64,000 bases of DNA from Betaproteobacteria bacterium (lineage in GTDB: Bacteria > Pseudomonadota > Gammaproteobacteria > Burkholderiales > CAIKXV01). Positions 42,353 to 57,806 of this stretch are shown in pieces. A program made the translations under genes and the position numbers. Each line of letters begins with the position of its first letter. Within the stretch, counting starts at the first letter, position 1. The notes beneath the pieces were generated by a model. It had not been told where the DNA came from. It ran no database searches and worked only from the letters and a program-made list of their open reading frames with translations. Where the stretch lies: NCBI GenBank assembly GCA_947458265.1, contig CANGYF010000004.1, positions 142,491 through 206,490 on the forward strand. Direction: 5' to 3'.

Positions 42353-43750
42353 ATGTCACATGAAGCGGGCGGCGACAACCGCTACACCCGGGGCATCGCT
42401 GAGTTCGTCTCCGGGTTGCGTTACGAGGACGTTCCGCCCGAGGTGCTGGCGCGGATCAAGCTGCTGATGCTCGATTCGCTCGGCTGCGCACTGTACGGCG
42501 CCGACCTCGAGTGGAGCCGCATCCTGCAGCGCATGCTGTCGGTGGTCGATGCCACGCGTACCTGCCCGGTCTGGGGCACCGACCAGCGCCTTTCTGCCCC
42601 GCATGCGGCCCTGGTCAATGGCACGCAGGTACAGGGCTTCGAACTCGACGACGTTCACCGCGCCGGCGTGCTGCATGTCGGCGCCGTCGTGCTGCCGGCG
42701 CTGATCGCCGTGGCGCAGATGCGCCCCGGCATGACCGGTCGCGAGTTCCTGGCCGCGGCGGTGGCCGGCTACGAGGTCGGCCCGCGCGTCGGGCTGTGCA
42801 TGGGCCCGGAGCACATCGCCCAGGGCTGGCATTCGGGTGCGACCCTCGGTGTGTTTTCGGCAGCCGCCGGCGCGGCGCGCGGCCTTGGCCTCGATGCCGA
42901 CCGGACCGTGCATGCCCTGGGCATCGCCGGCACCCAGGCCGCCGGCCTGATGGCCGCGCAGTACGGTGCGATGGTCAAGCGGGTGCATGCTGGCCGTTCG
43001 TCGCAGAGCGGCCTCTACGGTGCGCTGTTCGCGCGCGAGGGCCTGACCGGCATCGTCAACGTGCTCGAGAGCGAGTACGGCGGCTACTGCACGACCTTCT
43101 CGCGCTCGACCGACCGCTTCAACCTGTCGGAGCTCACTGCCGGGTTCGGAACCACGTGGCAGACCATGGGCGTCGCGCTGAAGTTCTATTCCTGCGTCGG
43201 CAGCAACCACACGACGCTGGATGCGATCCGCGACATGCAGGCCGAGCGTGCGTTCGGTGCCGAGGAGGTCGACCGCATCCTGGTGCACGGCTCGCAGGTG
43301 ACGATGGACCATGTCGGCTGGAAGTACGTGCCGCAGGGGCTGACCTCAGCCCAGTTGAACCTGCCGTACTGCGTGGCGACCTGGCTGCTCGAGGGCGACT
43401 GCTTTGTCGACCAGTTCACTGACGACAAGGTGGCCGACCCGGAGCGCATGCGCATCGCGCAGAAGGTCGCCGTGCAGCATGACGACGTGATCACCGCCAA
43501 GGGCGCGAAGTACCGGCACGAGGTCAGGGTCGAACTCTGGCTGAAGGATGGCACCCGCTTCGAACGCCGGGTCGAGTCGGCGCGCGGCAGCGAGTACCGC
43601 TTCGCCTCGGATGCCGACGTGGTCGAGAAGTTCGGCAAGCTGGCGTCCAAGGCGCTGCCGCCGCGCAAGGTCGAGGCCCTGCGCGATGCGATCCTCGGTC
43701 TCGACACGCTGGCCGACGCCTCCACCCTCGGCGAACTGCTCGTCCGGTGA
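42353..43750 (+). CDS. MmgE/PrpD-family protein (not PrpD proper)
   Basis: 465 aa with 'LMLDSLGCALYG', 'NGTQVQGFELDDVH' and 'GWHSGATLGVF' blocks. It starts 4 nt after the preceding stop. Confidence 0.88.
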   Translation: MSHEAGGDNRYTRGIAEFVSGLRYEDVPPEVLARIKLLMLDSLGCALYGADLEWSRILQRMLSVVDATRTCPVWGTDQRLSAPHAALVNGTQVQGFELDDVHRAGVLHVGAVVLPALIAVAQMRPGMTGREFLAAAVAGYEVGPRVGLCMGPEHIAQGWHSGATLGVFSAAAGAARGLGLDADRTVHALGIAGTQAAGLMAAQYGAMVKRVHAGRSSQSGLYGALFAREGLTGIVNVLESEYGGYCTTFSRSTDRFNLSELTAGFGTTWQTMGVALKFYSCVGSNHTTLDAIRDMQAERAFGAEEVDRILVHGSQVTMDHVGWKYVPQGLTSAQLNLPYCVATWLLEGDCFVDQFTDDKVADPERMRIAQKVAVQHDDVITAKGAKYRHEVRVELWLKDGTRFERRVESARGSEYRFASDADVVEKFGKLASKALPPRKVEALRDAILGLDTLADASTLGELLVR

Positions 43751-44002
43751 GTCTCGCGCCGGAGGCGAGATTACAGACTGCGGCGCGCGTGCTGGCCGGG
43801 TACGCTGCCGGCATCACATGCGCGGCGGACGAAAGCCCACGGAGACCAACTTGAATGACATGAAGGCACCGGCCGCAGTCGGCCAGTCACCGCTGACCCC
43901 GCCCCAGGTGCGGGCGATGTATCCGGGCGCGCTTTGGTGTCGGATCGAGCGGATGCAGGCGCTGTGCAGCGAATGGACCGGCGCGCGCGCGTCGGCGGTC
44001 CC

Positions 44003-44920
44003 ATGAGTTTCGATGTGATCGTGGTGGGCGAGGGCATTGCCGGCCTGGCCACGGCGCGCGACTGTGCGCGGGCCGGCCTGCGCACCGGTACTGTCGAGCA
44101 GTTGATGTTCGGTGGGCTGGTGACCTCGATCAACGAGCTGGTCGACTGGCCTGCCGAGGGCGGCGACCCCTGCTCCGGCAGCGACGTGGCGACGAACTGG
44201 ATCACCGAGGCGGCCGATGCCGGGGTCGAGAGCCTGGGCGGCTGCGCGATCGGGCTGGCGAGCGCACCGGGCGGCCTGCTGCTGCACACCGATGCCGGCA
44301 GCCACGAGGCGCGCTGCGTGGTCGTGGCCTCCGGCGCGTCGCGCCGGCCGCTGGGCATCGCCGGGGAGGAAGACTACGCCGAGCGCGGCCTGTCGCATTG
44401 TGCCGACTGCGATGGCCCGCTGGTCAAGGGGGCCGACGTGGTGGTGGTCGGCGGTGGCGACAGTGCGCTGCAGGAGGCCGCGGTGCTGGCGCACTATGCG
44501 CGCACGGTACATGTCGTGCACCGGGGCAGCGCGTTTCGCGCGCGGCCGTCGGTGCGCGCGCTCTTCGAGCGCGCCTTCGAGGGCCGGCCCGATGCACTGC
44601 AGGTACACTGGCAATCGACGGTGTCGGCCATTGAAGGTGCCGGTGGCGTCGAGGCGGTCATCGTCGACGGGCCGTCCGGTGCGTCGCGGCTGCCGGTGCG
44701 CGCGGTGTATCCCTGCGTCGGCCTGGTGCCCAACAGCGGCTGGACCGGCCTGGCCACCGATGCGCAGGGTGCAATCGTCACCGATGACAGGCTGGCGGCG
44801 TCGTTGTCTGGAGTGTTCGCCGTCGGTGCGGTGCGCGCTGGCCATGGTGGTCGGCTGATCGACGCGGTAGCCGATGGCGCACTGGCCGCGAAGTCCGTGA
44901 AGGAGGCATTGCAATGCTGA
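44003..44920 (+). CDS. thioredoxin-reductase-like FAD/NAD(P)H disulfide oxidoreductase
   Basis: 305 aa from ATG 44003. It has the FAD fold 'VIVVGEGIAGL', a redox pair 'SHCADCDG' (canonical TrxB is CATCDG), 'VVVVGGGDSALQEA' and 'HRGSAFRA'. Confidence 0.85.
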   Translation: MSFDVIVVGEGIAGLATARDCARAGLRTGTVEQLMFGGLVTSINELVDWPAEGGDPCSGSDVATNWITEAADAGVESLGGCAIGLASAPGGLLLHTDAGSHEARCVVVASGASRRPLGIAGEEDYAERGLSHCADCDGPLVKGADVVVVGGGDSALQEAAVLAHYARTVHVVHRGSAFRARPSVRALFERAFEGRPDALQVHWQSTVSAIEGAGGVEAVIVDGPSGASRLPVRAVYPCVGLVPNSGWTGLATDAQGAIVTDDRLAASLSGVFAVGAVRAGHGGRLIDAVADGALAAKSVKEALQC

Positions 44921-45585
44921 AGCTCTGGGGAAGGCTCACGTCCAACCGCACGCAGAAGGTGCTGTGGACGCTGGCCGAGGTCGGCATCGAGTTCGAGATG
45001 ATCCTCGCCAGCGGCGTGATGGGTGCCGGCGGCCATGTCGCGAAGGGCAACAAGCCGTTCGGCCTGGTCGACACACCGGAGTACCGCGCGCTCAACCCGA
45101 ACGGGCGAATCCCGACGATCGACGACGACGGCTACGTGCTCTGGGAGTCGAACGCGATCTGCCGCTATCTGGTGATGCAGTACGCACCGGAGGCGATGTA
45201 CGGCAACGACGTGCGCACCTTCGCCTCGGCGACCCGCTGGCAGGATTTTGAGAACAACGAGCTGCTGCCGCCGCAGCACGAACTGGTGATGGAGCTGGTG
45301 CGCCTGCCGCCGGAGCAGCGCAGCGCCGACAACCTGGCCAAGGCCCGTGCCGCGTTCAACAAGCGGCTGGAGATCATCGAGGCACAGCTCGCGCGCACCC
45401 GCTACATGGTCGGCGACCGGTTCACGTTCGGCGACATCCCGATCGGCATCCGGGTGCATCGCTGGGTGCTGCTCGAGGCCGAGCGTCCGCGGTTTCCGAA
45501 CATCGAGCGCTGGTATGCCTCGCTGATCGAGCGGCCTGCCTTCCAGCGCTTCAGCGCAGACCCGGCCAACCATGTCGAGGGGTGA
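44914..45585 (+). CDS. glutathione S-transferase family protein
   Basis: 223 aa with the N-terminal thioredoxin-like part 'NPNGRIPTIDDDGYVLWESNAICRYL'. It overlaps the preceding gene by 7 nt. Confidence 0.9.
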   Translation: MLKLWGRLTSNRTQKVLWTLAEVGIEFEMILASGVMGAGGHVAKGNKPFGLVDTPEYRALNPNGRIPTIDDDGYVLWESNAICRYLVMQYAPEAMYGNDVRTFASATRWQDFENNELLPPQHELVMELVRLPPEQRSADNLAKARAAFNKRLEIIEAQLARTRYMVGDRFTFGDIPIGIRVHRWVLLEAERPRFPNIERWYASLIERPAFQRFSADPANHVEG

Positions 45586-45690
45586 TTGCGCCGGGGACGT
45601 CGGGGACGCACGCCCGTGCCTGCAATAGGTAAACTCCGGCCATCCTGAGCCGGCCCGTGAAGCCGGCGCACCATGGCCCCGGAGGACTTG

Positions 45691-46710
45691 ATGGACCGAT
45701 TCGATACCCCCACGCGCCCAGCCGCGCACACGCCTGCCACATCGACGCTGGCACTGACCCTGGCACTGGCCGCGTCTGCCGCGGCGATGCTCCCCGTCGG
45801 CGCGGCTGCCCAGGCACAGGCCTGGCCGGTCAAGCCGGTGCGGGTGATCTTCCCCTATCCCCCTGGCGGCGGCACCGACGCGGTCGGGCGCATCGCGACC
45901 AACGCGCTCACCGAGCAGCTCGGGCAGACCTTCATCGTCGATACCCGGCCTGGTGCCAGCGGCCAGATCGGCACCGAGGTCGCCAGCAAGTCGCCGGCCG
46001 ACGGCTACACGCTGGTCCTGGGCAACGTCGCGCCGCTGGCGATCCTGCCGGCGTCCAACCCGAAGCTGCCCTACGATCCGCTGCGTGACCTGGCTCCGAT
46101 CAGCCTGATCGCCACCTCCGATTACATCCTCACCGTGCACCCGTCGCTGCCGGTGAAGAACCTGAGTGACCTGCTCGCGCTCGCGAAGAAGCGCCCGGGC
46201 GAACTCAGCTTCGCCTCCAGCGGCGCGCTGGGCGGGCCGCACCTGGCGGGCGAACTGCTGAACCTGCTCGGTGGCGTCAACATGCTGCATGTGCCCTACA
46301 AGGGCAATGGCCCGGCGGTGGTCGCCGTGCTGTCTGGCGAGGCGACGATGCTCTATGGCACCGGGCCAGCCGTGGTTCCATTCGCGCAGCAGGGCAGGAT
46401 GCGCATCATCGCCACCACCGGCCTCACGCGCACGATCAAGGACGTGCCGGCGATCGCCGAGCAGATCAAGGACTTCCAGGTCACCCAGTGGTACGGGCTG
46501 CTGGCGCCCGCGGGTACGCCGCGCGAGATCATCGACCGCCTGGCGAAGGAGACCGCGCGCGCCGTGGCCGATCCGAAGAATGCGGCGGCGCTGGTGAAGC
46601 TCGGCGCCGATCCCATGACGAACAGCCCCGCCGACTTCCGGCGCTTCATCGAGGGCGAGATCGCGCGTTACACCAAGGTGGTGAAGGCGGCCAAGCTGAC
46701 CGCGCAATGA
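45691..46710 (+). CDS. Bug-family (TctC-like) substrate-binding protein
   Basis: 339 aa from ATG 45691 (RBS GGAGGA 4 nt upstream; ATG 45673 is an alternative). The signal ends AQA|WPVKP and is followed by 'FPYPPGGGTD'. Confidence 0.9.
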   Translation: MDRFDTPTRPAAHTPATSTLALTLALAASAAAMLPVGAAAQAQAWPVKPVRVIFPYPPGGGTDAVGRIATNALTEQLGQTFIVDTRPGASGQIGTEVASKSPADGYTLVLGNVAPLAILPASNPKLPYDPLRDLAPISLIATSDYILTVHPSLPVKNLSDLLALAKKRPGELSFASSGALGGPHLAGELLNLLGGVNMLHVPYKGNGPAVVAVLSGEATMLYGTGPAVVPFAQQGRMRIIATTGLTRTIKDVPAIAEQIKDFQVTQWYGLLAPAGTPREIIDRLAKETARAVADPKNAAALVKLGADPMTNSPADFRRFIEGEIARYTKVVKAAKLTAQ

Positions 46711-47735
46711 GTGGCGGGCAGGACCTCGACCCGTTCGAGTTCTTCTTCGACAAGCCGTGGAGTGACGGCCTGCCGGTGGTGACACCGACGCAGGAGCGGC
46801 TCGACTGGATGCTCGGTGGCACCCGGCGCGATCCGACCGAGGTGGTCGGGCCGGTGCCCCCGGCGATGAACGTCGCCACCGTGCGCGATGTCGCACTGCA
46901 TGCGGTGATGGCCGGCTGCCGCCCCGACTACCTGCCGGTGGTGCTCGGCGGCCTCGCGCTGATCCTGCAGGAGCCGTTCAACATGAACGGCGTGCAGGGC
47001 ACGATGCATGGCGTCGCACCGCTGATGATCGTCAACGGGCCGTACGCGGCGAAGATCGGGCTGCACGGCGGCAACGGTTGCCTCGGGCCGGGCTTTCGCG
47101 CGAACGCCACCATCGGCCGCGCGATCCGTCTGCTGCTGCTCAACCTCGGCGGCGGCATCCCGGGCCTGGCTTCGGCCACCGTGCTGTCGACGCCGCAGCG
47201 CTACACCGCCTGCTGGACCGAGAACACCGAGCGCAGCCCGTGGGAGACGCTTGCCGTGTCGCGCGGCTACCGCGCGGACGAAGACGTGATCACCTGCGCC
47301 ATGGTCGAGAGCCCGCGCCTGTGCTACGACGACGTGAGTCAGGAGCCCGTACGCCTGCTCACCGGCATCGCCGACACGATGGCTGCGATGAGCAGCTGGA
47401 ACATGCACGTCCGCTCCGACATGGTGGTGGTGATGGGGCCCGAGCAGGCAACGGTCTGCGATCGCGCCGGCTGGCCTCGAGCGCGGGTGCATGAATGGCT
47501 GGTCGCCAACGCCGGCATGAAGGTGGTGGACATGCGCCGCGGCGGCAACTGGCGCGACGAGCGGGCACGGAAGATCGGTGTCGATCCGTCGGACGACGCT
47601 GCGTTCGTGCCGGTGATCAAGGACGCGCGCGACCTGCACCTGATGGTTGCGGGAGGGTGGGGTCCCGTGAGCGCGGTGGCGCATGGCTGGGGCGGCGGCA
47701 GCCGCGCGGTGCAGGGCACCTACCGCACGGATTGA
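46707..47735 (+). CDS. conserved protein of unrecognised family, paralog A (342 aa)
   Basis: ATG 46707 overlaps the Bug stop (ATGA). The coding signal is strong, with high third-position GC. About two thirds of positions are identical by eye to the next gene. I can name no domain. Confidence 0.8.
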   Translation: MSGGQDLDPFEFFFDKPWSDGLPVVTPTQERLDWMLGGTRRDPTEVVGPVPPAMNVATVRDVALHAVMAGCRPDYLPVVLGGLALILQEPFNMNGVQGTMHGVAPLMIVNGPYAAKIGLHGGNGCLGPGFRANATIGRAIRLLLLNLGGGIPGLASATVLSTPQRYTACWTENTERSPWETLAVSRGYRADEDVITCAMVESPRLCYDDVSQEPVRLLTGIADTMAAMSSWNMHVRSDMVVVMGPEQATVCDRAGWPRARVHEWLVANAGMKVVDMRRGGNWRDERARKIGVDPSDDAAFVPVIKDARDLHLMVAGGWGPVSAVAHGWGGGSRAVQGTYRTD

Positions 47736-47778
47736 CGTGCAGCACCATTGGCGGGGATGACCGCAGGGAAGGGATGCA

Positions 47779-48798
47779 GTGATCGACGAGTTCGAATTCT
47801 TCCTCGAGAAGCCGTGGTCGGACGGGCTTCCGGTGGTGACACCGACCGAGGCGCGGCTGGCCCCCTTCCTGGCGGCAGCCGGGCGCGACCCGGACGAGCC
47901 GATCGGCCGCGTGCCGCCAGCGATGGAGCCGGTCACGGTGCGTATCGCTGCGATCCATGCGCTGATGGCCGGCTGCCGTCCCGAGTACCTGCCGGTCGTG
48001 CTCGGCGCGCTGCCGCTGGTCCTGCGCGACGAGTTCAACCTGAACGGCGTGCAGGGCACGATGCATGGCGTGGCACCCCTGATGATCGTCAACGGCCCGC
48101 ATGCGGCGAAGATCGGGCTCAATGGCGGCAACGGCTGCTTCGGCCCCGGTTTTCGCGCCAACGCGACCATCGGCCGTGCGATCCGGCTGATGCTGCTCAA
48201 CCTCGGCGGCGGCATGGCCGGCATCGCCTCGGCCACCATCTTCGCGACGCCGATGCGCTACACCGCGTGCCTCACCGAGAACGTCGCACGCAGCCCGTGG
48301 GATAGCCTCGCTGCCTCGAAAGGCTACGCGGCTGGCGATGACGTGATCACCTGCGCGATGGTCGAGAGCCCGCGCCTGCACTTCGACGACGTGAGCCAGG
48401 AGCCCGAGCGCCTGCTGACCGGCATCGCCGACGGCATGACTGCGCTCGGTTCATGGAACATGCATGCCCGCTCGGACATGGTGGTCGCCATGGGTCCGCA
48501 GCATGCGACGATCTGCGCGCAGGCCGGCATGAGTCGCGAAGACGTGCACCGCTGGCTGGTCGAACACGCCGGGCGTACGGTCGGCGACCTCAAGCGTGGC
48601 GGTAACTGGCGGCGCGAGCGTGCGCTGCAGTTCCCGATCAAGGTCGACCCCGACGACGATACCTGCTTCATCCCGACGCTGAAGGATCCGGTCGACCTGC
48701 AACTGATCGTCGCCGGTGGCTGGGGTCCATGCACCGCGATCTGCCATGGCTGGAGCGGCGGCAGCCGTGCGGTGCATGGCACCTATGCCGTCCGATGA
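47779..48798 (+). CDS. conserved protein of unrecognised family, paralog B (339 aa)
   Basis: GTG start at 47779 follows GGGAAGGGA. It shares blocks with paralog A: KPWSDGLPVVTPT, NGVQGTMHGVAPLMIVNGP, GGNGC(L/F)GPGFRANATIGRAIRL, DVITCAMVESPRL, GGWGP..HGW(G/S)GGSRAV. Confidence 0.8.
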   Translation: MIDEFEFFLEKPWSDGLPVVTPTEARLAPFLAAAGRDPDEPIGRVPPAMEPVTVRIAAIHALMAGCRPEYLPVVLGALPLVLRDEFNLNGVQGTMHGVAPLMIVNGPHAAKIGLNGGNGCFGPGFRANATIGRAIRLMLLNLGGGMAGIASATIFATPMRYTACLTENVARSPWDSLAASKGYAAGDDVITCAMVESPRLHFDDVSQEPERLLTGIADGMTALGSWNMHARSDMVVAMGPQHATICAQAGMSREDVHRWLVEHAGRTVGDLKRGGNWRRERALQFPIKVDPDDDTCFIPTLKDPVDLQLIVAGGWGPCTAICHGWSGGSRAVHGTYAVR

Positions 48799-48826: not shown

Positions 48827-49354
48827 ATGAACGAACTGCCCTTCATCGACCCGACCGCGGGCGGCAACCGTCCGCCGGTCGCCCTCGCACCGCGTCCGAT
48901 GGATCTCGCCGGCAAGGTCGTGGCGATGATCGACAACACCAAGGAGCAGGGCAGCCTGATCCTCGAGACGGTCGCCCAGGTGCTGCGCGAACGCCATGGC
49001 GTCGCCAAGGTGATCATCCGGCGCAAGGAGCACTACTCCAAACCGGCCACCGACCAGCTGATCGACGAACTCGCGCAGGAGGCCCACCTGGCCGTCGCTG
49101 CCGTGGGTGGGTGAGGGTCCTGCACGTTGTGCAGTGTGCACGACACCGTGGAATTCGAGAAACGCGGCATCCCCGCGACCGTCATCATCACGCAGGCCTT
49201 CCGCAATGCCTGCATCTTCCAGTTCCGGTCCAAGGGCATGGCCGGCCATCCGTACATCGAGCTGCCGCATCCGATCAGCAACATGACCGAAGACGAAATG
49301 CGCGAAGTGACGCTGAAGGAAGTCGATGCGCTGGTGAAGCAGCTGGTCGCCTGA
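48827..49354 (+). CDS. candidate selenoprotein with U-G-S-C-T-L-C motif (in-frame TGA at 49112-49114 read as Sec, codon 96 of 175)
   Basis: ATG 48827 lies 8 nt after GGAAGGA. Track ORFs 48716..49114 and 49127..49354 are in the same frame and separated only by TGA plus four sense codons. The downstream part lacks an ATG and an RBS. A hairpin follows the TGA directly. Confidence 0.78.
49117..49144 (+). promoter_or_regulatory. SECIS-like hairpin immediately 3' of the in-frame UGA
   Basis: GUC-C-UGCAC (49117-49125) pairs with GUGCA-C-GAC (49136-49144), giving 8 Watson-Crick pairs and one C.C mismatch. The stem can extend by G.U, U.G and U-A pairs to a GUGC tetraloop at 49129-49132. The hairpin starts 3 nt after the UGA. 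Confidence 0.45.
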
Positions 49355-51063: not shown

Positions 51064-52338
51064 ATGAGCAGAAAATGGATGGCTGCGCTCGCGCGCGGCA
51101 TGCTGCCCGCCGCGCTGGCTGGCGCGTTCGGGATGATCGCCGGAGTGGCCGGGGCACAGACGCCGACCACACCGCCAACGGCCAAGGAGGTCGAGGCGCG
51201 CCGCGCGATGGGTGGGTATTTCCCCGAGCGGATGACGAACCCGAACCTCACGGCCAATCCGCCCCACCTCATCGCGACACCACTCGACCAGATCCCGCTC
51301 GACCGGATCCGTGTACCCGAGGGCTTCAAGGTGGAAGTCTGGGCGCACGGCATTCCCGGCGGACGCATGATGGCGCGCGCCCCGGGTGGTACGATTTTCG
51401 TCGGTACCCGCACGATCGGCCGCGTCTACGCGGTCTACGAGCAGAACGGCCAACGCGTCAACAAGGTGGTTGCCGAGAAACTCGTGCAGCCCAACGGCGT
51501 GCTGGTGCAGAACGGCTCGCTGTACATCGCCGCGATCAACCGCGTGTTCCGCTACGACAACATCGAGGCCAACCTCGAGAACATCCCGACGCCGGTGGAC
51601 ATGACCGAGGCGTTCAAGCTGCCGCCCGAGGTGCACCACAACTGGAAGTTCCTCGCCTTCGGCCCCGACGGGAAGATCTACTTCCAGGTCGGCGCGCCCT
51701 GCAACGCCTGCGAGATCAACCCCGGCGTGCATGGCCAGATCCGTCGCTACAACCTCGACGGCTCGGGCATGGAGATCGTCGCGCGCGGTGTACGCAACAC
51801 CGTGGGCTTCGACTTCCATCCGAAGACCGGCGAGCTCTGGTTCACCGACAACGGACGTGACTGGGCTGGCGAGAACGGCTTCGAGGACGAGCTCAACCGG
51901 CTGCCCGCCAACATGATCGGCGCGAACTTCGGCTTCCCGTACTGCCATGCCAACGGACAGCCCGACCCGGATGTCCGCGTGCCCAATCCCTGTGCCAACA
52001 CCATCCTTCCGGTGACGTTGCTGGGTGCGCACACGGCCGCACTGGGCATGCGCTTCTACACCGGCAAGATGTTCCCGGCCGACTACCAGAACTCGATCAT
52101 GATCGCGCGTCGCGGTTCGTGGAACCGCACCGAACGCGCAGGCTATGACGTGGTGCGTGTGACCGCGACGCCGGATGGCCGCAATGCACGGGTGACCCCG
52201 TTCATGACCGGCTTCCTGGACACCGCGAAGAACGCCTACTACGGCCGGCCGGTCGATGTGCTGCAGTTGCCCGACGGATCGATGCTGGTCGCCGACGAGC
52301 AGAATGGCGCAATCTACCGCGTGAGCTACTCGAGGTGA
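51064..52338 (+). CDS. PQQ-dependent sugar/sorbosone dehydrogenase-family protein (soluble, beta-propeller)
   Basis: 424 aa from ATG 51064 (RBS GGGGGAG), with a signal peptide. The blocks 'FTDNGRDWAGENGFEDELNRL' and 'GANFGFPYCH' are typical of this family. Confidence 0.85.
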   Translation: MSRKWMAALARGMLPAALAGAFGMIAGVAGAQTPTTPPTAKEVEARRAMGGYFPERMTNPNLTANPPHLIATPLDQIPLDRIRVPEGFKVEVWAHGIPGGRMMARAPGGTIFVGTRTIGRVYAVYEQNGQRVNKVVAEKLVQPNGVLVQNGSLYIAAINRVFRYDNIEANLENIPTPVDMTEAFKLPPEVHHNWKFLAFGPDGKIYFQVGAPCNACEINPGVHGQIRRYNLDGSGMEIVARGVRNTVGFDFHPKTGELWFTDNGRDWAGENGFEDELNRLPANMIGANFGFPYCHANGQPDPDVRVPNPCANTILPVTLLGAHTAALGMRFYTGKMFPADYQNSIMIARRGSWNRTERAGYDVVRVTATPDGRNARVTPFMTGFLDTAKNAYYGRPVDVLQLPDGSMLVADEQNGAIYRVSYSR

Positions 52339-52979
52339 CAGGCAGTGTCGATCGCGCGCCGCAGTCGCTGCGGCGCGTGTTCGCGTCGGTTGCGCTGGGC
52401 GCGACGCTCGCGGCCGGCGTGGCCTCCGCCCAGCAGGTCTGGCGCGTAGGCGATCCTGCCAGGGGAGCGTCACTCGCCGCCGGCTGCGCAGGCTGCCACG
52501 GCGAGCACGGTGCGGCACCGCTTCCGGGCATGCCGGCGCTGGCCAGCCAGCAGCCGGAGTTCCTCATGCTGCAACTCGTGCTGATGCGCGAAGGGTTGCG
52601 CGATGTGCCGGCGATGGCCGGGACACTGAAGGGACTCAACGATCGCGATCTGGTGGATATCGCCACCTACTACGGAGCGGCCCGGCCGTTCCGCAGCCCG
52701 CCTGCGCGCGATCCGGCGCTCTACGCCCGTGGCGAAACGCTGTCCGGGGCGATGGGTTGCAACAGCTGCCACATGGGCGACTACAGCGGTCAGCGCCAGG
52801 TGCCGCGGCTGGTCAACCAGCGTGAGGACTACCTGGCGGCCGCGCTGCGCGCCTACCGCGACGACCGGCGCAGCGGCACGGATACCAGCATGAATGCGGT
52901 GATGTACAAGGCTGTCGACGCGGATATCGCCGCAATCGCGCACTACCTGGCGCAGCGCCCGAACGATCAGATACGGTAG
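52335..52979 (+). CDS. dihaem c-type cytochrome (c4-like)
   Basis: GTG 52335 overlaps the preceding stop (GTGA). It has a signal peptide and two CxxCH sites (CAGCH, CNSCH). Confidence 0.85.
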   Translation: MTGSVDRAPQSLRRVFASVALGATLAAGVASAQQVWRVGDPARGASLAAGCAGCHGEHGAAPLPGMPALASQQPEFLMLQLVLMREGLRDVPAMAGTLKGLNDRDLVDIATYYGAARPFRSPPARDPALYARGETLSGAMGCNSCHMGDYSGQRQVPRLVNQREDYLAAALRAYRDDRRSGTDTSMNAVMYKAVDADIAAIAHYLAQRPNDQIR

Positions 52980-54058
52980 CGCTCGACGCGACGCCAGTCG
53001 ACGAGGGTCGAGAGGCCCACGGTGTCGTCCAGCCTTACGACACCGTGGCTGATCTCGGGCGATCGCGTGGTGATCTGATCGGCGTAGGCCAGGAAGAACG
53101 TGGATTCGGCCGGCAGCGATCCTGCGTGTCGGGGAAATGCGGCTGCCACGTTGAGGCTCGCGAACGCGCCCAGTGCGCTTTCCGCATGTAATCCCACGTT
53201 CACCGCACATCCGGCCGCATCTGCTGCGTGCGCGATGTCGAGGGCGATACTTGCGCCAACCCGGGCCGCCTTGAGGCCGATGAAGCGCGCGCCGCGTTCC
53301 AGGAACAGTTCGGCGTCTTCCAGCGACAGACAGCGCCCGTCCACCACGAACGGAATGGGCAGGGCGCGCTGGGTCTCTTCGAACCAGCGATTGGGGCGCA
53401 GGTCGCACGGATCTTCCGCATGCGTGGCGCCCTTGTCCGCAAGCAGCGCCACATAGGCTGCAGTCTGCTCAGGCGTGTAGGCGGTATTGGCGTCGACATA
53501 GAAGCTCACCTCGGCGCCTACCGCTGTACGGATCTCGTCCAGCGCCTTCGCATCGGTGTCGAAACCCTGGCCGCCCTTGATCTTCAGGGTCCTGAAGCCG
53601 TGACGCTCGACCATGCTGGCCGCTTCCCGCGCCATCTCCAGGGGCAGGGCGCGAGTCACGGTCCACGACACGGGCACTTCGGGCGTGCCCTTCCAGAGCT
53701 GCCATAGCGGCACGCGTTGCGCCTGCGCGCGCAGGTCCCAGCATGCGCTGTCGATGAGTCCCTTCGCCAGTCGGTTCTCCGGGAAAGGAGCAAGCCGCTG
53801 GCGCACGGCTCGAACATCCGAGAGGTCCACGCCCTTCAGCGCCGGCAGCAGCATGTCCTCGAGCACCGCGACCAGCGCCCTGCGTGTCGTACCGGTCCAG
53901 GTCGGCTTGATCGCCCCCTCGGCGACGCCTTCCAGGCCGTCATCCGTGAACAGCCGCAGCAGCATCAACTCGCAGCCTTCTTCCACCGTATCTTTCCAGT
54001 GGATCGGGCGAGGGTAGGGCAGCCTGATCGCAGTCAGGGTCGAGCGTTCGAGTTGCAT
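52967..54058 (-). CDS. enolase-superfamily enzyme (mandelate racemase/muconate lactonizing enzyme family)
   Basis: 363 aa. It has an N-terminal capping domain and barrel motifs 'LKIKGG', 'FYVDANTAY' and 'HAEDP'. Confidence 0.88.
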   Translation of the reverse strand: MQLERSTLTAIRLPYPRPIHWKDTVEEGCELMLLRLFTDDGLEGVAEGAIKPTWTGTTRRALVAVLEDMLLPALKGVDLSDVRAVRQRLAPFPENRLAKGLIDSACWDLRAQAQRVPLWQLWKGTPEVPVSWTVTRALPLEMAREAASMVERHGFRTLKIKGGQGFDTDAKALDEIRTAVGAEVSFYVDANTAYTPEQTAAYVALLADKGATHAEDPCDLRPNRWFEETQRALPIPFVVDGRCLSLEDAELFLERGARFIGLKAARVGASIALDIAHAADAAGCAVNVGLHAESALGAFASLNVAAAFPRHAGSLPAESTFFLAYADQITTRSPEISHGVVRLDDTVGLSTLVDWRRVERYRI

Positions 54059-54097: not shown

Positions 54098-55105
54098 TCA
54101 TTCAGGCTTGATCCCGGTCTCCTGCGCAACCTTGCGCCAGCGGTTGATCTCGTTGGAAACGAAGCGCTGGAACGCCTCGGCGCTCATGGCCTCCGGCTCC
54201 GCACCCTCGCCGGCGAAGCTCTGCCTGAGCTCGGTGGACTGCAACGCCCTGGCCAGTTCGCTCCCCAGCCGGGCAGTGATCTCGGCCGGCGTCTTCACCG
54301 GAACCACCAGGCCCCACCAGAACTCCGCCATGTAGCCGGGTACGCCGGACTCGGCGATGGTCGGCACCTGCGGCATGAAGCTGCTGCGCTTCTCGCTGGC
54401 CACGCCCAGCGCTCTCATGCGGCCGGCCTGGACCTGGGTCATCGCCGAGGGCAGGCTGGTCATCACCAGCTGGATGTGACCGCCCATCAGGTCGGTCAGC
54501 GCTGGTGCCGCCCCTTTGTACGGCACGTGGATGATGTTGATGCCGGCCATGCGCTTGAACAGTTCCGTGGCCATGTGGTTATGGCTGCCGGTGCCGGTGG
54601 AGCCGTAGTTGATAAGCCCGGGCTTGGATTTCGCCAGCGCGAGGAACTCGCGCACATTCCTCACCGGCAGCGACGGATGCACCACCATCAGCAGCGGACC
54701 GCGCGCCATCATCCCGACATAGGCGAAGTCGGCGATCGGCTCGTAGGGCAGCTTCGGCCGCAGCGCGGCATTGGCGACGAAGGAGGCCTGGATATTGAGC
54801 ATGCTGTAGCCATCGCCGGGCGACCTCGCGACGATCTCGGTACCGACGATGCCGCCGCTGCCCGGACGGTTCTCGACGACGATCTGCTGGCCGAGTCCAG
54901 GGCTCATGGCCTGCGCCGTGATCCGCGACAGCACATCGTTGCTGGCCCCGGGCGGGAAGGGCACGACCAGGCGAATCGGTTTGGCCGGCCAGGCCTGGGC
55001 CTGTGCCTGTGCCTGTGCCTGCACGGGACCGGTGGTGATCGCGTGGAAAGCGGTGGCAAGGATTGCGGCAACAAGCGGGGCACGCAGCCCGGAGCGCATG
55101 AACAT
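54098..55105 (-). CDS. Bug-family (TctC-like) substrate-binding protein
   Basis: 335 aa. The signal peptide ends in a (QA)n run followed by WPAKP, then 'VPFPPGASND'. Confidence 0.9.
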   Translation of the reverse strand: MFMRSGLRAPLVAAILATAFHAITTGPVQAQAQAQAQAWPAKPIRLVVPFPPGASNDVLSRITAQAMSPGLGQQIVVENRPGSGGIVGTEIVARSPGDGYSMLNIQASFVANAALRPKLPYEPIADFAYVGMMARGPLLMVVHPSLPVRNVREFLALAKSKPGLINYGSTGTGSHNHMATELFKRMAGINIIHVPYKGAAPALTDLMGGHIQLVMTSLPSAMTQVQAGRMRALGVASEKRSSFMPQVPTIAESGVPGYMAEFWWGLVVPVKTPAEITARLGSELARALQSTELRQSFAGEGAEPEAMSAEAFQRFVSNEINRWRKVAQETGIKPE

Positions 55106-55122: not shown

Positions 55123-55383
55123 TCAGAGGACGTCGGTTTCGTCGATCGCCTTCTGCACCGCGCTGGCGGTCACCCTGGCCCTCGTTGCGGCTGGCGCCAG
55201 CACCATGAAGCGACCGCTCTGCCGCTTCGGGGACGCCTGCATGATGTCGGCCTGCAGGCCGCGCTCGACCACGCTGCCCGGCAGCCGGGCAAGCGGAATG
55301 TCGTCGCGCTGCGACTGCCGCCGCAGCCGCTCATGCAATGCGTCGCTCAGTTCGATGGTGGTGCGCACGATGATTCTCCACAT
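55123..55383 (-). CDS. ribbon-helix-helix (CopG/VapB-like) antitoxin-like protein, no cognate toxin gene adjacent
   Basis: The N-terminus 'VRTTIELSDALHERLRRQSQRDDIPLARL...VERGL' resembles RHH antitoxins. The C-terminal half is not recognisable. Confidence 0.5.
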   Translation of the reverse strand: MWRIIVRTTIELSDALHERLRRQSQRDDIPLARLPGSVVERGLQADIMQASPKRQSGRFMVLAPAATRARVTASAVQKAIDETDVL

Positions 55384-55414
55384 CAGTGATGCAATGAATC
55401 ATACGGTGCGTCGA

Positions 55415-55510
55415 GAGCCGGGCGCAAACCAGGTTCACCGACACGCCCGAATCGGCCCTTTTCAAGAACCCGATGAGCTGCGCCTCCGAGAACCGCTTCT
55501 TCACGTCCAA
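55415..55510 (-). mobile_element. IS3-family transposase OrfA N-terminal remnant (about 30 codons only)
   Basis: The translation 'KKRFSEAQLIGFLKRADSGVSVNLVCARL' matches the conserved start of IS3-family OrfA (HTH). Similarity ends abruptly and no OrfB follows. Confidence 0.55.
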
Positions 55511-55876
55511 CCTCCTTTTCGGGGCCGGACTCTGAACCTTCATGCTACTGATTCTTGGGGGGCGTCGCTGCCGCTATGCGTAGTTCCGTCCGCAGCAAGG
55601 GCAGGGTTATCGGACGTCGTCGTCGGTTATGTGCAGGCTCACCCGGTGAGCCCGCTCTCAGCCAAGATCCCGCGCTGTGATACGGCCTGATATAGAGGGC
55701 ATCATGGATCTGACAGAAGGCAGGCCCTTCGTGCCTGCGCGAACATGAGTTTCCCGGGCCTTGCGTGGTCATGGCACAGTATGAAAAGACGAACCTGGTC
55801 GCGCTATTGTTGGCGAAGGTCAAGGCACTCTGGACATGTTGCCTACTAGATCGCCCAACCGGCACCGGGGTGCTGG

Positions 55877-56155
55877 GTGATGCAAGCCCGCGTGCGAAAC
55901 GCAGTTCTGGACGACGTGACGGACGAGGATGTCGAAGCGTGCCGGCTGAACGATGACCAGATCCAGGCTATGTCGGGCCAGACGCTCGAGGATGCGCAGA
56001 CTGCCGAGTACCGCAAGGTCGTTGCCTGGTGCGACGAAGTCGACCCGGACTGCACCGCCAAGGACATGGCGGCCGTTCTTTACAGGGCAGTTTGCGAGGA
56101 GGGCGGCAAGGAGATTACCGAGCCGGACCCGATCATCGGCCTGCTGGAGGTGTGA
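55877..56155 (+). CDS. small acidic hypothetical protein (about 91-92 aa)
   Basis: Start is GTG 55877 or ATG 55880. Its stop overlaps the next start (TGATG). No family is recognised. Confidence 0.45.
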   Translation: MMQARVRNAVLDDVTDEDVEACRLNDDQIQAMSGQTLEDAQTAEYRKVVAWCDEVDPDCTAKDMAAVLYRAVCEEGGKEITEPDPIIGLLEV

Positions 56156-56730
56156 TGGGAACCATGGACCGACTTACTTATACATCTGACCGGATTTCCG
56201 AGAGCGTCCGCGACGCAGCGGGCGATGCGGCAGCGCAGTGTGGCTACGACCAGTTCGAGGAGGTGTTGCTCGATTACGTAATCGTCGGCATACGACGGGT
56301 TTCCGCTCGGTCGGTCAAGGATCACTATCCCGAATGGCTGGAGCCGCCGTGTTCGTTTTCGCCTGACGAAATCGTTCGAGTCGACTGGCAAACCTGGGCT
56401 GTGCCCAAGGGCTACGTAAGCGCTTGTAAGGGAGGCGTGATTGCACGCGCCGATTCCATCCTCGTAGCCATCCCGACCCTTTTAGCGCGGGAGGTGTTCA
56501 CCTACGGATTGGGCCCCGAATACAACTGGCTGGAATGGGAAGAAGGCGTTCCCCCGGCAGGCGAGCCAGCGGCGTGCGCTTTCGAGGCGCTTTATGACCT
56601 GATCACCAGCGAATGGCTGGATGATATTTGCTGGGATGCCGACAGGGACCCTCGCTATCTGGATGACCTTCATCCCGACCTTCGGGCGACAGTCGCTAAG
56701 GCGATCGACAACTGCGGCAACCGTTCATGA
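56155..56730 (+). CDS. hypothetical protein (191 aa)
   Basis: ATG 56155 overlaps the preceding stop, and its own stop overlaps the next start (ATGA at 56727-56730). No family is recognised. Confidence 0.55.
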   Translation: MGTMDRLTYTSDRISESVRDAAGDAAAQCGYDQFEEVLLDYVIVGIRRVSARSVKDHYPEWLEPPCSFSPDEIVRVDWQTWAVPKGYVSACKGGVIARADSILVAIPTLLAREVFTYGLGPEYNWLEWEEGVPPAGEPAACAFEALYDLITSEWLDDICWDADRDPRYLDDLHPDLRATVAKAIDNCGNRS

Positions 56731-57512
56731 GCCGTTCGGGCTATCCCCCCTGGGTGGTCTTGCACATTCCGCATGACTCCACCTTCATCCCCGACCAAGT
56801 GCGGCCGCAATTCCTGCTGTCCGAGCAAGATCTCGCGCTCGAGCTTCAGCGCATGACCGATCATTTCACACACGCGCTGTTTGCCGAGCCGTCTGGTGAG
56901 GCTACGGTCATTCGCGCACCGGTCAGTCGCTTGGTGGTCGATGTGGAGCGTTTCGCCGACGACGCGATGGAGCCGATGGCCGCCCGGGGCATGGGGGCCG
57001 TTTACCAAGTTACGTCGCAACTCGCACCGCTTAGACGTCTGCTGCAGCCAGAGGAGCGTGAGGCGCTGATGCGTGAGTGGTATCGGCCTCACCACGAGCG
57101 GCTCGAGTGGTCGGTTGCCAGTGCTGTCGATCGGCACGGGCGTTGCCTTGTGATCGACTGCCACAGCTTCCCCGGGACGGCGCTGCCCTACGAGGACGCA
57201 GATCCTTTCGGTGCCCGACCGGACATCTGCATAGGGACCGATCCGTTCCACACGTCAGACGCGCTGGGGCAGGCCTTCATCGCCGCGTTCGGTTGCGACA
57301 GCTGGCGCGTTACGGTGAACGAACCTTTTGCGGGCGCTCTGGTACCGGCAAGCCGGTATCGTAAAGACCCTCGCGTTGCCGCGGTGATGGTCGAGGTGAA
57401 ACGGGATCTGTATCTCGACCGTTCAAATTTTTGCCCAGACCGACACTTTGATCTGATCGCGACCGAGGTGAAGCGCCGCTGCGTCGAGGCGATTTCGGCG
57501 TGGCAGGGGTGA
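56727..57512 (+). CDS. N-formylglutamate amidohydrolase (FGase)-family protein
   Basis: 261 aa with 'VVLHIPHDSTFIP', 'RLVVDVERF' and 'LVIDCHSFP' motifs characteristic of the FGase family of metal-dependent hydrolases. Confidence 0.75.
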   Translation: MSRSGYPPWVVLHIPHDSTFIPDQVRPQFLLSEQDLALELQRMTDHFTHALFAEPSGEATVIRAPVSRLVVDVERFADDAMEPMAARGMGAVYQVTSQLAPLRRLLQPEEREALMREWYRPHHERLEWSVASAVDRHGRCLVIDCHSFPGTALPYEDADPFGARPDICIGTDPFHTSDALGQAFIAAFGCDSWRVTVNEPFAGALVPASRYRKDPRVAAVMVEVKRDLYLDRSNFCPDRHFDLIATEVKRRCVEAISAWQG

Positions 57513-57730: not shown

Positions 57731-57806
57731 TGGCGCCCCGAAGACGAATCGAACGTCCGACCTGCCCCTTAGGAGGGGGCTGCTCTATCCACTGAGCTAC
57801 CGGGGC
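57731..57806 (-). tRNA. tRNA-Arg (anticodon CCU)
   Basis: The minus strand reads GCCCCGG-TA-GCTC-AGTGGATA-GAGC-A-GCCCC-CTCCTAA-GGGGC-AGGTC-GGACG-TTCGATT-CGTCT-TCGGGGC-G-CCA. This is a 76-nt cloverleaf with an encoded CCA and a TTCGA T-loop. Confidence 0.92.

Follow-up and report, generated by a model that had tools for sequence, protein, structure and literature searches.

Tandem paralogs in a betaproteobacterial operon belong to a large uncharacterised family that accompanies the UGSC selenoprotein

Tandem genes A and B and the selenoprotein gene downstream

The DNA analysed here, a stretch of 64,000 nucleotides (nt) from contig CANGYF010000004.1 of a Betaproteobacteria bacterium (the window), carries two adjacent forward-strand genes, paralog A (46707..47735) and paralog B (47779..48798), which encode proteins of 342 and 339 amino acids (aa) and are followed on the same strand by a gene for a selenoprotein of the UGSC family. 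A reading made from the letters alone (the sequence-only reading) had described A and B as tandem paralogs of an unrecognised family. The table of open reading frames (ORFs) contains both frames with these coordinates and lengths, and the estimate by eye that about two thirds of the positions are identical is confirmed by BLASTP, whose alignment runs over the full length of the two proteins, with 234 of 335 positions identical (70%), 81% positive and an E value of 2e-177. All of the shared blocks quoted at the time are found in both proteins, i.e. KPWSDGLPVVTPT, AGCRP(D/E)YLPVVLG, NGVQGTMHGVAPLMIVNGP, GGNGC(L/F)GPGFRANATIGRAIRL, DVITCAMVESPRL and the tail GGWGP...HGW(G/S)GGSRAV. Neither A nor B matches a model in Pfam-A or NCBIfam, in line with the description of the family as unrecognised, and both exact sequences are already public under the label 'hypothetical protein' in Rhodocyclaceae/Burkholderiales metagenome bins. 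The TctC gene upstream ends in a TGA that shares bases with the ATG start codon of A (ATGA).

The decisive context, which the sequence-only reading lacked, is a selenoprotein gene with an in-frame TGA directly downstream of B (48827..49354, +). Its ATG at 48827 lies 28 nt past the stop codon of B, and the TGA at 49112..49114 is read as selenocysteine (Sec), giving a protein of 175 aa with Sec96 in the motif GG-U-GSCTLC and thus a UxxCxxC spacing. TGA occupies the aligned codon in 17 of 17 close loci. The read-through product scores 162.4 bits against PF24696 (cut-off 25) and 133.5 bits against NF041046 (cut-off 125), and its N-terminal half alone already matches the Pfam UGSC family. Judged by these matches, the downstream gene is a bona fide UGSC family member.

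A hairpin resembling a selenocysteine insertion sequence (SECIS) is predicted by the centroid fold at 49126..49144 (+), 12-30 nt after the TGA, with stems at 49126-49132 and 49138-49144 and the loop AGUGU. Its folding energy alone is no different from that of shuffled sequences (z = 0.70). Across 31 diverse UGSC genes all five core pairs are unbroken and four of the five show compensatory changes; at the closing pair 19 genes have CG, 11 have GC and one has UA, varying via a synonymous Val codon. Because of this covariation, and not on account of its folding energy, we accept the hairpin as a genuine SECIS-type element at the level of sequence comparison.

Gene calling would mis-annotate the UGSC gene of the window as a 95-aa ORF that ends at the Sec codon. 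Such truncation by gene callers is routine for UGSC, and public gene calls split the protein in two elsewhere, into 99 + 78 aa (L112/L113), 93 + 72 aa (L027) and 61 + 80 aa (L029). Among the UGSC genes that lie beside members of the A/B family, 83 of 91 have TGA as the Sec codon and the other eight have a Cys codon; some UGSC proteins are without the second Cys and carry UGSS or UGTS variants. The 64-kb window contains no tRNA-Sec or other sel genes, its sole tRNA being Arg-CCT.

A family partnered with UGSC

A HMMER scan of 1.84 billion representative proteins assigns at least 4,573 clusters (50% identity) to the family at E <= 1e-3, and 959 clusters at E <= 1e-30. A word-indexed search returns more than 6,900 family matches, which is a lower bound. 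Hosts include Burkholderiales, Nitrospinota, Tectomicrobia, NC10/Methylomirabilales and Chloroflexota as well as, among firmicutes, Ammoniphilus resinae and, among haloarchaea, Natrinema zhouii and N. soli. All named members are called 'hypothetical protein', with one UniRef entry named 'Thioredoxin', and Pfam domains are found on fused members only. In a Pfam survey of A, B and 58 diverse relatives (60 members) no match recurs, even at E <= 10. Scattered singleton matches (autoinducer synthase, a CFI-box motif at 15.8 bits and others) were dismissed as noise since they do not recur. A and B are thus genuine paralogs of a very large uncharacterised family, and the absence of any Pfam or NCBIfam model for thousands of bacterial and archaeal proteins constitutes an annotation gap.

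To map the genomic setting of the family we used 109 fetched loci plus the window, in which family and UGSC genes were located with hidden Markov models on six-frame translations. This yielded 112 family arrays, 102 of which have flanking DNA sufficient for judging UGSC adjacency. A UGSC gene lies within 400 nt on the same strand in 85 of the 102 (83%), downstream in 56 and upstream in 29. Eight more arrays have UGSC within 6 kb, bringing the total to 93/102, and nine have none in the locus. The loci come from Burkholderiales, Nitrospinota, Tectomicrobia, NC10, Chloroflexota and Ammoniphilus and from Natrinema, a haloarchaeon. In four distant members that were looked up, namely in Ammoniphilus, on a Natrinema plasmid (where UGSC is of the Cys type) and on two metagenome contigs, UGSC is adjacent and the other neighbours differ.

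This partnership is further supported by gene fusions, which we counted in the best 150 representative family clusters. UGSC is fused to the family domain in 36 of them (24%), at the N-terminal side in 33 and at the C-terminal side in three, and in several of these fusions the gene call stops precisely at the Sec codon. In about nine clusters an N-terminal thioredoxin-fold CxxC domain (AhpC-TSA, 6.7e-12) is followed by a conserved PGCGS linker motif. One cluster (P0228) is fused to a thioredoxin reductase (TrxR)-like flavoprotein, and a Sec-type UGSC gene directly precedes it in two contigs, so that the three-part set of the window recurs in a different layout. Tandem double-domain proteins of ~710 aa, found in six clusters, carry the full residue signature described below in both halves. 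The family is therefore an almost obligate and often fused partner of UGSC, and A and B are probably its missing catalytic partner. This goes beyond the tandem paralogs that were originally noted, in that an unannotated family already deposited as hypothetical proteins emerges as the UGSC partner.

With respect to the thioredoxin-fold fusions, the CxxC domain takes the place of UGSC in the N-terminal ~160-230 residues of P0173, P0183, P0193, P0195, P0196, P0201 and P0243. The linker PGCGS(K/R) echoes the U-G-S of UGSC and may be a shared Cys/Sec-Gly-Ser element reaching into the large domain.

UGSC has been counted among the most abundant selenoproteins of ocean and especially freshwater metagenomes since 2007-2008, and its function is given as unknown in 2026 reviews (PMC2398784, PMC1976440, PMC13188914). 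Zhang and Gladyshev (2008) described UGSC fused to an unnamed conserved Cys-containing domain, 'Unknown_1' (PMC2398784). This domain is likely the family studied here, with its UGSC fusions in 36 of 150 representatives.

Residue conservation was counted over 142 complete family copies from the 110 loci. Invariant or nearly so are D20, G21, P23, A69, G70, G137, R138, E172 and G316. The sequence-only reading had singled out the cysteines of the AGC, GNGC and ITC motifs as invariant. They are so between A and B, and Cys71 (AGC) is also kept family-wide, in 139 of 142 copies, whereas Cys125 (GNGC) is found in 79/142 and Cys197 (ITC) in 35/142. That list was also incomplete, as it missed Cys169 (YTAC), likewise kept in 139 of the 142 copies. 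The core signature of the family, over ~340 aa, reads D20-G-L-P...A-G-C71...G-R138-A...C169-x-x-E172...A-G-G316/317, and both A and B carry all of it, with identical core residues (D20, C71, R138, C169, E172). The D-C-R-C-E set is intact in 137/142 copies, among them both paralogs of the window and all copies in all tandem arrays. From its conservation this core looks catalytic. Natural variants have Ala or Gly at position 71 (L036, L058, L085) or Ala or Val at position 169 (L040, L085, L100).

An AlphaFold2 model of A, built from a 60-sequence alignment, reaches a mean pLDDT (predicted local distance difference test) of 94.5 and a pTM (predicted template modelling score) of 0.92. In it the domain is compact, and a tight turn that joins two of its helices holds Cys71. 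Neither A nor the family profile finds a PDB sequence below E = 0.09. Foldseek comparison of the model finds no PDB chain and no BFVD match at E <= 1e-3. The weak matches, to class I fumarate hydratase, cyanuric acid hydrolase (Toblerone) and SelD, with template modelling (TM) scores of 0.17-0.27, and to YjgF-like proteins, with scores of no more than 0.27, were rejected as fold assignments for A. The large subunit is thus without a characterised family or a solved fold as relative. For P0137, a natural UGSC-family fusion, AlphaFold2 gives a pLDDT of 93.5 and a pTM of 0.93 across its 561 residues, although the linker is disordered, and from this model the UGSC and family domains would pack against each other.

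The UGSC domain in the same model (residues 1-180) is predicted to be a flavodoxin-like alpha/beta sandwich with the Sec at a helix start, which differs from the thioredoxin-like fold suggested in 2008 (PMC2398784). Among solved structures, lumazine synthase, AzoR and MdaB come closest to it in fold (TM on target 0.4-0.56). In NCBIfam comparisons, for which UGSC proteins were read with Cys for Sec, the UGSC of the window gives weak matches to GrdB (TIGR01917, 5.4e-4), GrdF, GrdH and a generic selenoprotein-B model. Only its residues 72-164 align, to positions 322-409 of the 431 in TIGR01917. The same likeness recurs among 33 diverse UGSC proteins, where GrdB is matched by 15 (best 2.2e-5), GrdF by 12, GrdH by eight, TIGR01918 by eight and PrdB by six, while unrelated NCBIfam families are each matched by two of them at most. 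A distant relationship between the Sec-bearing part of UGSC and GrdB/PrdB is therefore likely. Neither the UGSC sequence (best E = 0.28) nor the UGSC profile retrieves a GrdB/PrdB chain from the PDB. The best match of the profile (E = 0.0035), a designed 'protein origami' chain, was treated as noise.

Operon context and a candidate two-component redox enzyme

Upstream of A and on the same strand lie three further genes that form a conserved operon with A, B and UGSC. The nearest encodes a TctC/Bug periplasmic solute-binding protein (45673..46710; PF03401, 1.6e-61), which is translationally coupled to A and likely the substrate-uptake component. A protein resembling glutathione S-transferases (GST), with GST_N and GST_C domains, is encoded at 44914..45585, and its start overlaps the end of the gene for a TrxR-like flavoprotein with a CADC motif (43934..44920; Pyr_redox_2 3e-31; TIGR01292 189 bits, below the cut-off of 343). 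The true start of the latter may be slightly downstream of the listed TTG. The gene before it (42353..43750, +) encodes an MmgE/PrpD-family protein (PF03972, PF19305), a possible pathway neighbour of uncertain membership.

The order TrxR-like, GST, TctC, A, B, UGSC is identical in 10 loci from freshwater Burkholderiales metagenome-assembled genomes, some of them incomplete (L001-L005, L007, L009, L011 and L012 among them), and TctC-A-B-UGSC recurs in four further loci. TctC is kept upstream of A in L001-L014 and L030, and the GST-like gene is conserved in 11 related loci. Taken over all loci, family genes have a TctC gene nearby in 25, a TrxR-like gene in 17, an ABC-transporter ATPase gene in 17 and a PrpD-like gene in nine, including the distant L075, L085 and L094. 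Further neighbours are TRAP and short-chain fatty acid transporters, CoA-transferases, ECH, SDR, amidase and amidohydrolase genes. The family thus neighbours uptake systems and enzymes of organic-acid or amide catabolism. Within the cluster of the window we found no sigma-70-like promoter, and its four terminator-like matches do not convince, chance alone predicting about two.

In the closest relatives (L001-L007 and L012) a class-V aminotransferase gene (Aminotran_5, 4.7e-47; L002:3-1217) comes shortly before the TrxR-like gene, a position that the MmgE/PrpD gene takes in the window. The Pfam class-V aminotransferase family also covers cysteine desulfurases and selenocysteine lyases.

On this basis we lean towards the view that a new two-component thiol/selenol redox enzyme has A and B as its large catalytic subunits, which bind the substrate, and UGSC as its small one. 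The co-transcribed TctC protein would import a small and probably carboxylate-bearing substrate, which would be bound in a pocket formed by D20, R138, E172 and the glycine-rich loops. UGSC might then dock on the large subunit, such that Cys71/Cys169 together with Sec96 attack or reduce the substrate, Sec96 serving either as the nucleophile or as the reductant. This would leave a selenenyl-sulfide (Sec96-Cys99) or a mixed disulfide, which the TrxR-like flavoprotein could re-reduce with NAD(P)H, possibly assisted by the GST-like protein. The large subunit would probably function as a dimer, and an ancestral homodimer may have become an A/B heterodimer in the lineage of the window. Such a cycle would resemble those of selenoprotein-B reductases (mechanism per PMC11229817) and of thioredoxin-dependent reductases.

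The arrangement is comparable to GrdB/GrdE and PrdB/PrdA, in that the gene for a small or medium selenoprotein, its Sec set in a UxxC motif, accompanies the gene for a larger catalytic partner. As in Grd and Prd, the substrates would be small amino or carboxylic acids. Grd operons have a TrxR gene embedded in them, and the operon of the window likewise has a gene for a TrxR-type recycler. In contrast, A and B have no detectable sequence relation to GrdE/PrdA, the operon is without GrdA, GrdC/D, PrdC and PrdH genes, and most hosts belong to aerobic or freshwater Burkholderiales, to Nitrospinota or to haloarchaea rather than to Stickland fermenters. The combination of conserved Cys with fusion or adjacency to thioredoxin-fold CxxC domains and TrxR-like flavoproteins is also reminiscent of thiol-dependent reductases that have a dedicated or fused redoxin, such as fusions of methionine sulfoxide reductase (Msr) with thioredoxin, or peroxiredoxin (Prx) together with AhpF/TrxR. 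Unlike Msr, Prx, ArsC and similar families, to which it has no sequence or fold relation, the family has as its usual partner a Sec protein with a non-thioredoxin fold. More tentatively, A/B and UGSC might represent a widespread Sec-dependent reductase class with a catalytic subunit of novel fold, distantly analogous to glycine/proline reductase, that works on a small organic acid or amine, in haloarchaea as well as in aerobic bacteria of fresh and marine waters, and employs a pyruvoyl group derived from Cys or else a new Cys/Sec relay chemistry.

The sequence-only reading had speculated about self-processing or a pyruvoyl group, and the likeness to Grd and Prd, which lends this idea some indirect interest, raises the question whether A and B are pyruvoyl proenzymes in the manner of GrdE/PrdA. 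They would self-cleave at Cys71 or Cys169, the pyruvoyl group would bind an amine and the Sec of UGSC would attack its alpha-carbon, which would make the system a new enzyme of the glycine/proline-reductase type in aerobes. The Prd system, which co-encodes a pyruvoyl subunit with a selenoprotein and is processed at a Cys (PMC11229817), offers a precedent, to which the recurrent weak likeness of UGSC to GrdB, GrdF, GrdH and PrdB around the Sec and the two nearly invariant cysteines of the family can be added. Against it, none of the 60 surveyed members matches the Pfam GrdE/PrdA model, which we take to be Gly_reductase (PF09338), at E <= 10, and five members searched against NCBIfam give no GrdE/PrdA-type match. 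In the predicted structure the position of Cys71 in a tight inter-helix turn of a compact domain also speaks against cleavage there. Rare members without Cys71 or without Cys169 occur naturally, the CxxC thioredoxin-fold fusions point to disulfide chemistry, and PrdH-, GrdA- or GrdC/D-like genes are missing from an operon whose neighbours are PrpD-like, TrxR-like, GST, TctC, methyltransferase and Usp genes. Since GrdE/PrdA similarity and the accessory genes are absent and Cys-lacking variants exist, we disfavour this scheme and consider it quite improbable.

The same residues could serve a non-redox enzyme. Two conserved Cys together with Asp, Glu and Arg resemble the acid/base pairs of Cys-Cys racemases and isomerases, and in this case A and B would racemise, isomerise or hydrolyse a carboxylate or amide, with UGSC only as a regulatory or protective redox switch. 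The amidase, amidohydrolase and PrpD-like neighbours would suit such an activity, as would the existence of one family clade without UGSC. However, the UGSC adjacency in 83% of arrays and the fusions with UGSC, thioredoxin-fold and TrxR-like domains fit stoichiometric redox turnover better than occasional protection, as does the preference for Sec over Cys by 83 to 8. A non-redox function thus appears unlikely.

Alternatively, Cys71 and Cys169 of A/B could ligate a metal or Fe-S centre at the interface together with Sec96 and Cys99 of UGSC. This would provide four soft ligands in total and agree with the UxxCxxC spacing of the UGSC in the window, and the faintest Foldseek matches of A are to the Fe-S class I fumarate hydratase. 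The TM score of these matches is only 0.24, though, several UGSC proteins lack the second Cys (UGSS, UGTS) and the CxxC thioredoxin-fold fusions suggest dithiol exchange, which leaves a metal centre as the least probable of the alternatives considered.

Several observations weigh against the two-component redox enzyme that we prefer. Neither homology nor a fold match indicates its chemistry, as the TM scores from Foldseek against the PDB are at most 0.27. UGSC scores 15-19 bits against the selenoprotein B models (TIGR01917/TIGR01918/TIGR04483), whose cut-offs are 65-602, and because the scores are so far below them UGSC is not a member of GrdB/PrdB. No more than about five independent lineages have the TrxR-like gene in the vicinity of family genes. 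One clade (L079, L082, L088, L101, L105, L107) and the multi-copy arrays L015, L023, L031 and L034 have no UGSC within reach, so that UGSC is not universally required. As to the pairing of A with B, the synonymous distance between the two (dS 0.54) is no larger than between orthologues, leaving partial gene conversion or isoenzyme roles as possible explanations, and single-copy Burkholderiales relatives (L017, L018, L032) have otherwise similar operons.

The members without UGSC (L079, L082, L088, L101, L105, L107; also L023, L024, L031) have D-C-R-C-E intact and may use a general thioredoxin in place of UGSC. A PotA/MalK-type ABC-transporter ATPase, recognised by eye, is found in L082, L088, L101, L107, L023, L024 and L031.

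For UGSC, one of the most abundant aquatic selenoproteins, a partner of ~340 aa with its own Cys/Asp/Arg/Glu site is now defined, and some operons, including that of the window, supply a dedicated TrxR-like reductase and an uptake protein. The 'unknown selenoprotein' thereby becomes a defined enzyme system whose function is directly testable. If the reading as a Sec-dependent reductase is true, it would assign a function to an abundant aquatic selenoprotein family.

Copy number and wider surroundings

The sequence-only reading had taken the retention of two such diverged copies to point to a heteromer and not to a recent duplication. The copies are indeed old and retained, but a heteromer, though plausible, would mechanistically not be required. 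Nor do orthologous loci always hold two copies: the 112 arrays comprise 85 single, 19 double, four triple and four quadruple ones, i.e. 85 single-copy against 27 multi-copy arrays, and a single copy with UGSC is the family-wide rule. In a neighbour-joining tree all multi-copy arrays fall into one clade, which includes the window. Because the related operons L017, L018 and L032 have one copy, an A/B heteromer is not obligatory.

Within the multi-copy clade, L001-L012 have their A-type copies in one orthologue group and their B-type copies in another, and the A-then-B order is strictly kept. In arrays of the Nitrospinota type the copies 1, 2 and 3 are orthologous by position. Orthologues show ratios of nonsynonymous to synonymous substitution (dN/dS) of 0.04-0.18 for A and 0.05-0.20 for B and are thus under strong purifying selection, and the comparison of A with B gives a dN of 0.23, a dS of 0.54 and a dN/dS of 0.43. 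Considering the double-domain proteins, the separate A and B orthologues, the purifying selection and the positional orthology, a two-domain functional unit and thus an A/B heterodimer is plausible.

A and B could equally simply be isoenzymes, i.e. separate homodimers that act on related substrates and share one UGSC and one recycling system, given the single-copy relatives, the shared distant UGSC and the seeming competence of all copies. Arrays of three to four copies (L021, L022, L025, L035) share one UGSC several kb away and look like an expansion of substrate range, all copies of all arrays have the full catalytic signature, close relatives make do with single-copy operons and the A-B dN/dS is raised compared with orthologues. 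On the other hand, the six clusters with two copies per polypeptide argue for joint action of two domains, and the order of A and B is invariably maintained in L001-L012. Between a heteromer and isoenzymes the balance is roughly even; isoenzymes with one shared UGSC and recycling system, taken as an overall account of the locus, seem possible and somewhat doubtful.

In the Nitrospinota-type arrays the three to four copies are split from UGSC by ORFs without Pfam match (L022:6464-9992, similar in L021, L025 and L035), among them a 617-aa ORF (L022:8142-9992). These loci have OsmC-like and metallo-beta-lactamase genes upstream and an enoyl-CoA hydratase gene downstream.

Beyond the operon, the genes of the window are unrelated in kind, comprising MFS, TAXI-like binding protein, methyltransferase and Usp genes and a GSDH gene with cytochrome c. 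The GSDH-like dehydrogenase, with a dihaem-type cytochrome c, is located at 51064-52979. A second TctC/Bug gene (54098-55105, -) adjoins an enolase-superfamily MR/MLE gene (52967-54058, -), the pair resembling a small acid-catabolic module, and small unannotated ORFs follow at 55123-56155. Between 56000 and 58000 the G+C content dips to 0.62 and then climbs to 0.72-0.73, which may mark an island or junction. The low-G+C zone holds the tRNA-Arg(CCT) gene (57731-57806, -) and an N-formylglutamate amidohydrolase gene (56727-57512).

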